Source: Pseudovirgaria hyperparasitica
Lineage: Eukaryota
Assembly: GCA_010093815.1 (NCBI GenBank)
Contig: ML996566.1
Direction: 5' to 3' (one strand)
Length of the DNA: 64,000 nt
The position numbers and the translations under genes were made by a program. Of the stretch, positions 36,865-41,920 are shown piece after piece. Positions within the stretch are counted from its first letter, which is position 1, and each line of letters begins with the position of its first letter. The notes under the pieces were generated by a model, which was given only the letters and a program-made list of their open reading frames with translations, was not told the origin of the DNA and did not search any database.

Positions 36865-38087
36865 GGTCTCCGGAAATGATAAAGGGCGCTGCTGAGTCGA
36901 GCGGTGTCATTCCCTTCAAACTTTCGCCACAGGATGGGGATTGGGAGGCAAAAACCTTATTGCCTAGAGGCGCACTCGTTGTTGACGAAAGGCGTAACCT
37001 ATTTCGCAAATGTCAGCTTGTGAATTCTGGAGTAAGCCGTATCGAGCGAAACTCATGGTCGTACTTGAAACTGCGCAGTCGTGCTGCCTCCAACCTGACG
37101 TGCTTAGGCTGCCTGGGAGATTCAACGACTTCAAGCTGATAGACTTGCCCCTTCTGGAAGAGCGTAGCCAACCACAGAAAAGTCGCAATTAGAATATAGT
37201 CTACAGTTCTTGCTAGAGAACCAATAATAATGGTTAACAAATCTTCCGTCGCTAGTTCATATTAAACCATGAAATATCTTTAGATTCATGCGAACCAGTG
37301 TTTCATGCTCATGTCAAGATATCCGATTCAAACTTGGATGTATCACGATTCTTTTGATCGTTCACGTAGCATTACACGGCAACGTTTCTCCCCACCTAGT
37401 GATTGTTACTATGCTCTAGCATTTGATGGCCTACGGCTCCTACTCCACTCACCATCCCTGGTATTTGCCTTACATGGAACCGAATCACATATTTGCACAA
37501 TTCCCTGCATCCCTGGGTGGCATAACGATTCGTCTATTTCTCTTGGCTGCTTTTCCAGACTTCCGAATGGCAGCGAGGAGAATCAAGGCAGCAATCGTCT
37601 GGATGTCCTTCATATGTGGAGAATTACCCTTCGTGATGGCGCCTCTTGTTAGGCGGCCTCGCTCTCCATCACATATCACTATCGCTTGCTCAGTTTTCTG
37701 CATTAGGGACCTTACGTACATACATTAGCCATCGAGATCGGACGAAGTACTGTTTGTCTACTATGGCTGATAACGTACTGGAGAAGGAGGAAATTGGAAT
37801 TCACTTGGAAAGTAGTAGTTAAGCGCCACAATCGCGCCACTCCTGCCCCACTGGCTGGGATCTCCACCTGCCATGCACTTTCCACTAGCTATCCAAACCT
37901 ACGATCTTTGACTTCCTCTCCAGCAGTCAGCAGTAATATACTGGTTGCCCATGGGGATTGTAAATACCAGTGCATTTGAAACTACTGGCCCAATCACTTT
38001 CCATCTGTATCATTCACTTGACAATCGCTCGTCCAAAATCGGCCACTCGCTCTCAACATCACTCCCAAGTTCGAGGTATATAGTACG

Positions 38088-38897
38088 ATGCCTCTAAACA
38101 CTACACCCCATCCTTTGTGGACACAACCACCGTCTACAATCAATCCATCGGGACCAAACACCAATAGAAAGTACCACGCCTGCGCAACACTCCTCAATAC
38201 GCCTCCCGGCCAGTCCTCGAAAGCACGATCCCCTCTCGCACTTAAACCTCGTGAAAGCCATGAGTCGCTGGCGAAGCGCGTCGAAGCGGCGCGTATATTA
38301 GAAAGCAACGAGATGTTGATATGGTACAGTGTGGCGCGGGACGAGGTAAAACACTTCACTTTATCCCCAAAGACGTTCGTCGCAAGGACGACTGCTGCTG
38401 CTGCTGCAATTCCCCGTTGCAAACATGCTGACAGCGTTATATTGCATATGAAGACCGTCCCGCAAACACGCCTACATTTCCAACGCATCGTCTCCGGTAT
38501 GCCCGCGCCGCCTGAGCCACCCTCGCCTACCTCGACAGTATCCTCCTTGTCGAATTCTCCGTTGCGAGAGTCGCCGCTACGCAACAACCCCTCGCTCACA
38601 TCTCCGTCCACATCATCAAGGAAAGGAAAGGCTCCGTGTAGTCCTCGCCAAAATCCTCGCCAAAACCCTACTGAACCAGCTGTCGACAACACAGACGCAC
38701 TGATGGCAGCAATGTTGGAAGCTGCTACAAGCGAGTCACTTGAGATGAATCCAACGCAGTATGCTACTGAAACTGCCGCAGGTCGGGCACGATACCCGCA
38801 AGCCAATGCATCAAATGTGGCCGGGCCTTCAACTGCAGCGGATAGACTCGATTTAGATGCAGATGATATTGATGATCACCTGTTTGACGAAACGTAG
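38088..38897 (+). CDS. Hypothetical fungal protein (Pro/Ser-rich)
   Basis: 269-codon ORF. Probable in-frame 108-nt intron 38346-38453 joins AARILESNEMLIWYSVARDE|TVPQTRLHF. Confidence 0.6.
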   Translation: MPLNTTPHPLWTQPPSTINPSGPNTNRKYHACATLLNTPPGQSSKARSPLALKPRESHESLAKRVEAARILESNEMLIWYSVARDEVKHFTLSPKTFVARTTAAAAAIPRCKHADSVILHMKTVPQTRLHFQRIVSGMPAPPEPPSPTSTVSSLSNSPLRESPLRNNPSLTSPSTSSRKGKAPCSPRQNPRQNPTEPAVDNTDALMAAMLEAATSESLEMNPTQYATETAAGRARYPQANASNVAGPSTAADRLDLDADDIDDHLFDET

Positions 38898-39133
38898 AAC
38901 GAGACTGTGTATAGTGAACATGACGAGTGTGTTTGAGAGAAGAAGTGAGTTTAGGCTAAGATGCGCCATGCTGATGACCTGTTTCTTTAGGCAATTCTTC
39001 TGGGCGGTAGTTGGGGATGTGTAACAAGTATTATGAGCGACAGGCATGCCAGAGATACCCGTGCGAATAAAATTGTAACATAGGATAACAAGCACATGTT
39101 TCAGTGAACGTTGACTGAATGATACGTATATGC

Positions 39134-39630
39134 TCATTCACCTTCTGTGCTTTTTGCTGTACATATATCTGGTGCATACTCCCCTACACTGACTGATGCA
39201 TGGATCCATCCCACGCCTAGCCCTCCTATGCAAATACATCCCAGCAGCCCCAAGACAACCATTTTTCTCTGAATGCTTTTCCTAACAGCCTCGCTCCTAT
39301 TCACACGTTAACTACCCCCTACCAAGCTCACATATATGCTTCCCCGCCATAATAGGGTCGGATTGTCCTTAGGATGCAATGGACTTACATCCCCTCCTCC
39401 ATGCCCACGTTGCGCCACCACGCCCCCCGATCGTCGTCCTTAGTCCGATTCACCATGCTCTCTGCGTCACCGACCTGTCGCCGCTCACTCACCTCCCACT
39501 TGTGTGCGTTCAGCTTGAGTTTCATGGCTCGAGCGGCCAGGGTGCCTCCACGCTTGAGCTGGTCGCGTATGCGCTCGGCCTCGGTCCAGCCGTTTGAAGG
39601 ACTAGAAGAACTTCGGAGGACCGGTAATTG
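39134..39630 (-). CDS. Putative readthrough C-terminal extension of PDK (81 aa unspliced; 134 aa with a TM-like helix if intron 39388-39297 is spliced)
   Basis: CAA TAG CAA TTA context and an open in-frame run to 39385. A gtaagt..gttaac..atag intron keeps the frame open to TGA 39136-39134. Confidence 0.55.
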
Positions 39631-41223
39631 CTATTGAAGGGGCTCAGAAGAAGAGGAGAGGCGGTTCAAATGGAGATAAACGTCAGTACCATACCTGAGG
39701 GTGTTGTTAGTAATGGCACTTGGCACGTGTATTTTTGACGTTGGAGAAGCTTTACCCTTCCATGCTAATGAGCTTGAGGTCACCGCCAAAGTACCGCGCA
39801 TACAGACGGGAAATGGGCAGACCATATCCAAAGCCCGCCATTGGTGCCTTGAAATCGCTTTTATTGAAGTCTGGGTCGAGATTCGGTGTTTGATCGACCG
39901 TCGTGTACATATATGTCCAAACAAGAGGTATTGAACTTCGCGGAATACCACCACCCTCATCACTGATCTTTATAGTTATATCTTCTTTGCCCTCTGCGAC
40001 GATGACTTTGGTCACGGGAAACTCTTCCTTGTCCTGACCGTGAGTTTCGACAACGGCGCGCAGCGAATTCTTCAGGGTCTCAAAGAGCATATGTGACAAA
40101 TGGCCAGGGACATACATAAAGTTGATATCGGGATTACAGATGAGTTGTACTTTAGGCGCATCAAAGAGTCCGTAGTGGTCTTCGCATACGAATCGAGCAT
40201 TCTCGATGGCTTCCATGGCGAGGTCTTTGACATTTGTCTTTGTGCATATAATTCCTACGTAATCCGAATCTGTGCGTTTCTTCTGATCCGTCAATGCGAT
40301 ATGCTGGCCGATCAACATTCGTATGCCGATGCGAGACATGTAAAAACGGTCAAGGAAGGCCTGGATGTTGTGATCAATTTGCATCCGTTGACGCTTGCGC
40401 TTGTACTCTAATATGCCTTGAGCTATACTTATAAGTCAGCGGATTGTTTGCGAAAGGTTCGTAACAACACTGACCAACAGTCGTTACAACACTGTCATGC
40501 CTCCTTTTGATTGTGTCCAGCGCCGCAGCGAAATTACTGTTGTATTGCGAAAGCTCCGGTGGCCAGTCTTCACCGTCGTCGGCAGCAACGTAGTATCTCC
40601 TAGCGGCAGTCACTTGCTTTCCGTGGCCGTTTCCATTCCCATTGGTGGCTGGCGCTGATTTGTACTGGCCCTGCTTGACTGAAGGGTTCTGTGTGGTCTG
40701 GCTGAGCATTCGCGTGTCCCGCGCATTCTTTTTCGCTGGCTTCAGCAGTCTGTCGCGCACTTCTGTGGTCAAAGATGGCCGAGGTAATGTTGTTAATTCC
40801 TGTGCGCCTGTGAGTCTTCAGAATAACAACGTCAGAGGGTGATAGTGCATACCTCGAACGACTGTGCGTACCAATCCTGTACTCTTTGTATAGATGGCAT
40901 ATCATTCAGCCCATCGGGGAGATCATTGAGTTCTTGCACACGATGTGCCAGCCGTATGGGAAGTTCTTCGGACAGAAATTGTGATGCGCGAAAGAGAGTG
41001 CCCGTGGATGGTCGTTCTCCAAACTGCACCATTTGTCGTAGAGACACACCTATAGCTGTCAGACATCTTGAGCGCAATATAGGTAGCCATGCAAGTCTTA
41101 CCTGTGGCAGGAAAGTTGCTGTAGTGCTGCGATTGATTAGCACACCTAGTCATACAGTGATGTCCAGCGACAAGAGCATACCTTGATGGTCTCCATCAGC
41201 TCTCTAGACTTCTTCCATGACAT
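39631..41223 (-). CDS. Mitochondrial pyruvate dehydrogenase kinase (PDK/BCKDK family)
   Basis: Six exons: 41223-41182, 41126-41102, 41049-40853, 40799-40475, 40422-39756, 39694-39631. Motifs ELPIRLAHR, RFYMSRIGIRMLIGQH, FETLKNSLRA, DEGGGIP, MAGFGYGLPISRLYARYFGG; ends RLSSSSEPLQ*. Confidence 0.96.
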
Positions 41224-41920
41224 GACGGGTATGAATCTTCAAGGGCAATGTGCCCTCGAACGCGTCCTAAGCAGTCAACGTTGAGGTGCAGCCGACGTGG
41301 GGTGAGTCGTGTTGCTCTGACTATGACGCCGTTCCCATGGAAGCTATACGTGAAGCTACCAAGGTGGATATATACGGTTTAGAAATTGTGGTGTGCGGTC
41401 ATAAATCACGAAGTAATAGCAGACATGGTAGATAGAGTGAGTAGGAAGCGAAAAACAAGCAATTGGGTCGACTATCGGGCGACGATGGTGTGTATAGGTA
41501 GGCGACGCTGTCCCTTGAGTGACTACAGCCCAGGGTATGAGCGGACAGTCTCACTTGCAGGGAGCTCCGCGGTGGGCAAAGTTGCCGAACCCTCCCCCCT
41601 CCGTGCGTGTGCCGTCACCACCTCGGAGTTCACGTGCCCTGCCTTTTTTCTGATTCGCTGTCCATTCCAGACTACCAAAAGCTGTCTTTATTCACATTGT
41701 AAAGTGGTGATGTTGTCGCATGTACTGGCTGGAACGGGCAAGATACGACTCCCAAATCTGACTATGGTTCGGAATGACATCTTCTGCCGCGCCCATGGAT
41801 AGCACACCTCAAGCATCGTGAAGCGTTATAAAGCCAAGACCTGAAGCTGTACTAATGCAACATGATATCCACAGATAATCCATAGTCACAGAATAGGTCT
41901 TGCATCAATCACTGATAATA

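Follow-up and report, generated by a model that had tools for sequence, protein, structure and literature searches.

The gene for pyruvate dehydrogenase kinase (PDK) of the fungus Pseudovirgaria hyperparasitica lies on the minus strand of contig ML996566.1 (GenBank assembly GCA_010093815.1), in a stretch of 64,000 nucleotides that was analysed as a whole and is called the window here. Programmed readthrough of its stop codon probably yields two kinases, a short one and one that carries a C-terminal tail. The coding region up to the leaky stop (39634..41223) begins with MSWKK, ends with YGTDVYLHLNRLSSSSEPLQ and consists of six exons (41223-41182, 41126-41100, 41047-40852, 40798-40475, 40422-39753 and 39691-39634) separated by five GT..AG introns (41127-41181, 41048-41099, 40799-40851, 40423-40474 and 39692-39752), whose joints are taken from transcript-like contigs that skip them. 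The joined exons translate without interruption to ...YGTDVYLHLNRLSSSSEPLQ*, and the product matches residues 1-427 of P0186 exactly, a public protein of 504 residues that NCBI labels Pseudovirgaria hyperparasitica. Both domains of the PDK/BCKDK family, the N-terminal BCDHK_Adom3 (PF10436, 6.7e-59) and HATPase_c (PF02518, 6.6e-10), are recognised by Pfam on P0186, and the closest solved relatives in a PDB sequence search are human PDK3 (1.2e-81) and PDK2. The gene described in the original prediction, which was made from the letters of the window, is thus confirmed by transcript-like contigs and by Pfam.

On the minus strand the kinase ends GAG CCC CTT CAA TAG CAA TTA CCG, and the letters are those quoted in the original prediction. 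The TAG (39631..39633) is the leaky stop, at which termination would give the short PDK and readthrough the tailed PDK. It is preceded by CAA (39636-39634) and followed by the hexamer CAATTA (39625..39630), which conforms to CARYYA and to CARNBA. Beyond the TAG the frame is open for 81 codons on the same strand (39388..39630; QLPVLRSSSS...AWWRNVGMEEGM), again as first described, and this readthrough tail is defined by homology, frame and the ratio of nonsynonymous to synonymous differences (pN/pS). The TAA that would end the long isoform (39385..39387) lies inside ATGTAAGT, and the tails of relatives stop at the aligned position. The most conserved part of the tail is its core, EVSERRQVGDAE (tail residues 46-57; 39460..39495), which contains invariant alignment columns. 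The C-terminal motif WWRNVGMEEGM (tail residues 71-81; 39388..39420) follows, with W71, W72, V75 and E79 invariant.

The position of the stop is fixed among relatives. Metagenome contigs were scanned with the tail alignment; 148 stretches matched, 89 of them encode a relative, and the best 80 of these 89 were kept. The distinct sequences number 59, namely 58 loci and the window. The YGTD motif of the last PDK exon and the tail core share one frame in 74 of the 80 loci and in the window; of the remaining six loci, four have the same architecture once a variant of the motif or the end of a contig is taken into account, and two are cut upstream by the contig end. The architecture of last PDK exon, one in-frame stop and Q-x-P-V... 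is found in all 78 loci that show the site. In every one of the 59 distinct sequences the first stop stands 21 codons past the Y of YGTD. TAG occupies that place in 30, TGA in 26 and TAA in three, a sense codon in none, and in 55 of the 59 exactly one stop precedes the tail's own. On a tree built with the stop and the hexamer masked, the identity of the stop switches at least six times. The window groups there with TGA-CAACGA sequences and therefore would have reached TAG-CAATTA on its own, on a long branch whose placement is not secure.

The bases that follow the stop are conserved as nucleotides. The six bases 3' of it match CARNBA in 55 of the 59 sequences and CARYYA in 28. Synonymous sites on this side are close to fixation (+6 A 98%, +9 A 98%, +15 C 95%, +21 G 86%; n=57), and third codon positions 5' of the stop vary freely. 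The conserved nucleotide motif reads CAR-stop-CAA-YNA-CCN-GTC-ATG-AGG-GA. The window itself has diverged at +10 to +23 (39624-39611), where it reads CCG-GTC-CTC-CGA-AG. A link between the identity of the stop and the base at +8 (T after TAG, G after TGA) is not established, with 4-6 independent pairs and a sign test p of 0.5-1. The portions of PMC3542737 and PMC4132726 that deal with this signal describe CARYYA as promoting readthrough of UAG and UGA and, less well, of UAA, and CARNBA as doing so in yeast; a signal with this range of action fits the mixed stops of fungal PDKs. The relatives keep both the context and the open frame that the original prediction had read in a single genome.

A few loci depart from this arrangement. 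In L078, L079 and L080 (about 2300-2700), which form a divergent lineage, the PDK stop TAG is followed by GTGTAAGTC, with a second stop two codons past the TAG and a donor-like GTAAGT. Before the tail core, which reads REISERRQVGD, stand about 90 codons rich in Pro and Ser, and these tails do not have the usual ..WW..MEEGM end. A real intron may lie just past the stop in these loci, or the arrangement may be a different one. In L039 and L069 a second in-frame TAA is present within the variable linker of otherwise conserved tails, which could reflect decay, an assembly error or a second readthrough.

The tail itself behaves as a protein. An open run of 81 codons has a chance of about 0.015-0.06 from composition alone, and the G+C content of the frame at the three codon positions (0.64/0.49/0.72) is coding-like. 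When the 81-residue translation was searched against 1.84 billion representatives, 93 matches were obtained at E<=1e-3 (best 4.7e-13), of which 91 are small proteins of 42-133 residues, most of them ending at query residue 81; in a second database, 236 of 262 candidates matched the tail. The family signature is Q-x-P-V-[M]-R-D-E-W ... S-Q-G-L-T ... A-x-x-A-M-K-L-K ... E-V-S-E-R-R-Q-V-G-D-A-E ... P-W-W-R-N-V-G-M-E-E-G-M, from which the window tail has lost the MRDEW motif. The tail family is without a Pfam model: the window tail and five relatives gave a single Pfam match, in one relative, which at 13.6 bits (E 0.042) falls short of the cut-off of 27. A search of the ESM Atlas reached a best score of 0.77, below the useful level. 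Across the 59 sequences the tail is 59-141 codons long and in frame every time, and the other two frames are free of stops across the tail in just 2 of 118 cases.

Selection along the frame was measured as pN/pS on 53 of the 59 sequences, six having been dropped for a non-standard core or C-terminus. The ratio is 0.044 in the 20 codons before the leaky stop, 0.373 in the nine codons after it, where synonymous diversity is unusually low, 0.071 in the core EVSERRQVGDAE at a synonymous divergence of 0.7-0.9, and 0.154 in the last 10 tail codons. In the 10 codons past the tail's own stop it is 0.957, and there nucleotide diversity is flat at 0.72-0.73 at all three codon positions. The tail is under purifying selection at the protein level, the pattern that had been named at the outset as a check on a translated extension.

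Some further features of the tails and their records can be mentioned here. The tails of L075, L076 and L077 are short (59-65 codons) and keep EVSERRQVGDA; the PWW..MEEGM end is absent from them. The tail of L070 ends in ..WWKNVGMGEFFPCNELFLL, against ..MEEGM in relatives, and looks as if a frameshift or indel had occurred near its end. An open frame of 93 codons runs antisense to the window tail (39356-39637, plus strand) and shares its third codon positions; it was rejected as a gene, being the expected shadow of the real coding frame. Among the 120 matches listed, 20 (including P0002, P0104 and P0107) are tail-only open reading frames (ORFs) from metagenomes that carry the JGI name 'pyruvate dehydrogenase kinase 2/3/4', which suggests that the naming references for PDK already contain tails through artificial gene models.

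The tail is also part of the PDK transcript. The window's RNA data are two public runs from one sample of one study, which are not recorded as RNA; they behave as transcript assemblies, because their contigs skip the five PDK introns and one intron of the plus-strand neighbour. Contigs from both runs were compared with 38300-41700. They are colinear with the window from 39691 to 38452, with no joint around the TAG and no other letter at it. The transcript extends past 39400, the limit before which polyadenylation would have spoken against the extension, and the PDK contig runs on into the neighbouring gene and so gives no transcript end. Among the relatives, L016 is a spliced copy of the genomic L019 and L020 (98.5-100% in blocks, the gaps between them being confined to the genomic copy), the same holds for L028 against L031 at 99.6-100%, and L044, L048, L022 and L058 show the same spliced-copy pattern against relatives at 83-93%. 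The last PDK intron is absent from 18 loci, and the stop is kept in all 18. The spliced transcript copies of relatives all keep the stop and are colinear through the tail and beyond; mature PDK mRNA thus carries the tail and, as assembled, retains the stop.

Four other explanations of the downstream frame can be weighed against these data. That it is a chance ORF or a decaying remnant without function has a negligible probability. The composition chance of 1.5-6% for the 81-codon run and the missing MRDEW of the window tail would allow it, but the core has a pN/pS of 0.07 at a synonymous divergence of 0.7-0.9, the stop is kept in 59/59 and its context in 55/59, and the length varies and yet the frame is held. 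Public gene models imply instead that the stop is removed in some transcripts within a short in-frame intron, so that the long isoform would arise by alternative splicing. Longer proteins that contain the tail were found 8 times among 277 candidates and 8 times among 552 in a second search; they are 10 distinct proteins, all of them Dothideomycete PDKs. P0186, which is 100% identical to the window tail, joins ..MEGYGTD to QLPVLRSS.. and thereby implies an intron of 51 nt (GTTTAT...CAATAG; 39631..39681, minus strand) that would delete VYLHLNRLSSSSEPLQ together with the stop. In favour of it, GT stands at 39681-39680 and AG at 39632-39631 in the window, P0186 uses that junction, and the nine other annotated Dothideomycete PDKs bridge the stop as well. 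However, the annotated bridges (MEG to DEW, YGTD to DEW, SSS to ELIRS, MEG to FLASK and PLQ to PMVDE) sit at different, non-homologous places, the TGA or TAA stops of 29 of the 59 sequences leave no AG at the end of the stop, the segment that would be taken out is near-invariant coding sequence on both sides, and the spliced contigs of the window's organism and of its relatives retain it. With no joint in the RNA contigs, near-invariant residues lost and bridges that are inconsistent, the 51-nt intron was rejected as an annotation artefact, and splicing as the source of the long isoform is very unlikely. The bridges are read as devices by which gene predictors reach a tail with an obvious coding signal. 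The original prediction overlooked both this public model, which already includes the tail by way of an invented intron, and the homology of the tail to the animal PDK tail that is considered below.

Stop-loss adenosine-to-inosine (A-to-I) editing occurs in Sordariomycete sexual development, and the original prediction held it in reserve as another way to open the frame. The stop would then be turned into UGG at certain stages. The stop of the window is TAG, the favoured editable stop, and the section of PMC13123824 on the kinase DBF2 documents stop-loss editing with functional consequences. Against this, the PDK stops are TAG in 30, TGA in 26 and TAA in 3 of the 59 sequences, so that 29 are other than TAG, whereas the same section gives TAG as the edited stop of DBF2 in 94% of Sordariomycete species. 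In addition, the window contigs have no A>G or any other letter at the stop, complementary DNA-like contigs of relatives carry the genomic stop, the conserved CARNBA context is a readthrough signal, and the named relatives are Dothideomycetes, the editing of that section being described in Sordariomycetes. Editing is thus unlikely as a general route, and as the explanation of the tail it is extremely improbable. A separate small protein, made from its own start (the ATG at +5 in most species, Met36 in the window) through an internal transcript or reinitiation, is also improbable. Gene callers repeatedly predict stand-alone proteins of 42-133 residues starting MRDEW.., in accord with such a product. 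However, 12 of the 59 sequences, the window among them, encode T, L, V or R where the others have the ATG at +5, and yet keep frame and motifs; L075 has no in-frame ATG in its tail, and the first one in L076 is past the conserved core. Therefore, the tail cannot depend on that ATG. Moreover, the Q-x-P-V between the stop and the ATG is near-invariant and aligns with human ..RLPV.., a start at Met36 in the window would leave out 35 in-frame residues aligned with the family's S-x-G-L-T region, and the tail is carried on the full-length spliced PDK mRNA.

Several observations weigh against readthrough. The ATG five codons past the stop is present in 47 of the 59 sequences, with a purine at -3 and in a GTC-ATG-AGG context with fixed synonymous sites, and separate initiation may occur in those species. 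A second in-frame stop is found in four of the 59. The conserved bases from +10 to +23 (CCN-GTC-ATG-AGG-GA) exceed any described readthrough hexamer. RNAalifold predicted 0 pairs in the 93-99 nt around the stop for 38 of 58 sequences, in an alignment that is poor beyond +30. The 80 loci are phylogenetically clustered metagenome contigs, and the named relatives all belong to the Dothideomycetes. The case for translation past the stop is built on sequence comparison and assembled contigs, and rare isoforms, transcript ends and low-level editing escape detection in such contigs. The programmed readthrough that was originally proposed for the PDK stop is strongly supported by the fixed stop, its 3' context, selection on the downstream frame and the presence of the tail on spliced mRNA, and it is likely on this evidence.

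The residues after the stop also have a counterpart in animal kinases. The PDB was searched with the PDK of L016 read through, with X at the stop, and the HMMER alignment to human PDK2 and PDK3 crosses the stop (..lsssseplqXqlpvm.rggwtssel against ..LSTDSV---ERLPVYnKSAWRHYQT). The same cross-stop alignment is obtained with a profile built from 20 sequences; the alignments reach about 13 residues past the stop and end before the distal DW-motif region of the animal proteins. A PDB search with the last exon and tail only (99 residues) gave 0 matches, and the cross-stop alignment needed the kinase domain as its anchor. As judged from these alignments, the post-stop residues are the counterpart of the animal PDK C-terminal tail, a correspondence that covers the start of the fungal tail. 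The animal tail crosses to the partner subunit and helps to bind the lipoyl domain of E2, and its 'DW motif' is important for activity. An AlphaFold2 model of the read-through PDK from a 20-row alignment has a mean predicted local distance difference test (pLDDT) score of 46.9, with the tail below 50, and is unusable. The predicted complex of PDK core and tail scored 0.00 and 0.00; it was run without controls and is evidence neither way.

The mechanism suggested by these data is one in which a single reading frame of the PDK mRNA gives rise to two proteins. Most ribosomes would terminate at the TAG (39633-39631) and release the short kinase ending ...SSSSEPLQ. A fraction of them would decode the stop by a near-cognate tRNA, because of the poor-termination context CAA-stop-CAA-YNA (CAA-TAG-CAA-TTA in the window), and would continue for 81 codons to the TAA (39387-39385). 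The tail added in this way would consist of the fungal counterpart of the animal C-terminal tail and a fungus-specific module (..AARAMKLK..EVSERRQVGDAE..WWRNVGMEEGM). Ribosomal readthrough as the route of decoding, its rate and the residue inserted are what we infer from the sequence. The stop is kept in 59/59 while its identity drifts, and therefore both products, the short kinase and a minor tailed one, would matter. By analogy with animal tail mutants, the two isoforms may differ in docking on the pyruvate dehydrogenase (PDH) complex or in kinase activity. More tentatively, the stop might be a tuned switch, in which termination efficiency, through release-factor level, tRNA supply or stress, governs how tail-less and tailed kinase are balanced and hence the docking or activity of PDK on the PDH complex, with EVSERRQVGDAE...PWW as a new regulatory or docking element and the bases to +23 as an extended enhancer; this is possible, and on present evidence rather doubtful. 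If true, it would tie translational fidelity directly to carbon entry into the tricarboxylic acid cycle.

The region downstream of the tail holds a second set of features. The original prediction carried the long isoform further, through a spliced intron of 92 nt (39297..39388, minus strand) into a membrane-anchor-like segment. The letters agree with this, since 'atag' ends at 39297 and 39389 joined to 39296 continues the frame for 53 residues (SEAVRK...TEGE*). The removal of the intron is unsupported: between 38452 and 39691 the contigs follow the window without a break and have no joint at 39388/39297, and the GTAAGT that overlaps the stop of the tail is not conserved among relatives. An extension beyond the TAA likewise finds no place in the relatives, whose tails all end at the position of the window TAA, typically in ..MEEG[MLVI]*, and whose sequence contexts past the tail's stop are diverse. 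The hydrophobic 'membrane-anchor' ORF (39134..39296, minus strand) translates as described and is specific to the window, tblastn against the 80 loci giving nothing below E 0.55; as a PDK membrane anchor it was rejected, and it is judged to be a chance ORF in the 3' untranslated region. A convergent neighbour gene follows at 38022-38897 on the plus strand. The RNA contigs lack its 108-nt GT..AG intron (38344-38451), although this intron keeps the frame, contains no stop and is spanned by a stop-to-stop ORF of 291 residues; no Pfam match was found for this gene. The 3' ends of PDK and of the neighbour may overlap, because the transcript contig passes straight from one into the other.

To our knowledge, well-supported and deeply conserved cases of cellular readthrough are few in fungi. 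Known fungal cases mostly add short peroxisomal signals. The PDK case concerns a central metabolic regulator, with a long conserved extension whose animal homologue is important for the function of the enzyme and with the classic hexamer of tobacco mosaic virus and yeast, and it would offer a clean natural system for the study of context-driven readthrough and of PDH control in fungi. A systematic annotation error comes to light as well, in which the tail is cut off, called a separate 'hypothetical protein', or bridged by tiny invented introns that delete conserved kinase residues. Readthrough of PDK is undescribed in the literature searched in full text, which included the PDK papers on Aspergillus nidulans and Fusarium graminearum and had subscription journals outside its coverage. 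The mechanism is of a known kind, and the PDK case appears to be new and conserved across a fungal class, the named relatives being Dothideomycetes.

Compared with the C-terminal tail of animal PDK1-4 (PDB 1y8n, 2btz and others), the fungal Q-L-P-V-x..W aligns with human E-R-L-P-V-[YF]-N-K-S-A-W; the animal tail is uninterrupted coding sequence of about 40 residues, whereas the fungal one has a stop just before it, is longer and bears an extra conserved module. In fungi, readthrough reportedly adds a cryptic peroxisomal targeting signal type 1 (PTS1) to glycolytic enzymes by way of short extensions after UGA-CUA, in work attributed to Freitag (2012) and Stiebler (2014). PDK resembles these enzymes in that a fungal metabolic enzyme gains a conserved C-terminal extension through its stop. 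It differs in the length of the tail (59-141 residues), in the CAA-YNA context and in the homology of the tail to an ancestral part of the enzyme; no PTS1 tripeptide was found at the C-terminus of the tails, which end in ..MEEG[MLVI]. Readthrough of PDE2 in Saccharomyces cerevisiae is said to modulate cyclic AMP (Namy in 2002), and there, too, decoding of the stop of a metabolic or signalling regulator alters the properties of the product, in a different protein. The type I (tobamovirus) signal UAG-CARYYA and the yeast signal CARNBA are matched by CAA-TAG-CAA-TTA in the window, and CARNBA by 55 of the 59 sequences; unlike in these systems, the PDK gene is a cellular, nuclear-encoded gene for a mitochondrial kinase, and nucleotide conservation reaches to about +23. 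Stop-loss editing of DBF2 in Sordariomycetes, as treated in the DBF2 section of PMC13123824, likewise gives a fungal kinase a C-terminal extension and two isoforms, but the extension of DBF2 is described there as poorly conserved, disordered and destabilising and follows a TAG in 94% of species, whereas that of PDK is strongly conserved and follows any of the three stops.

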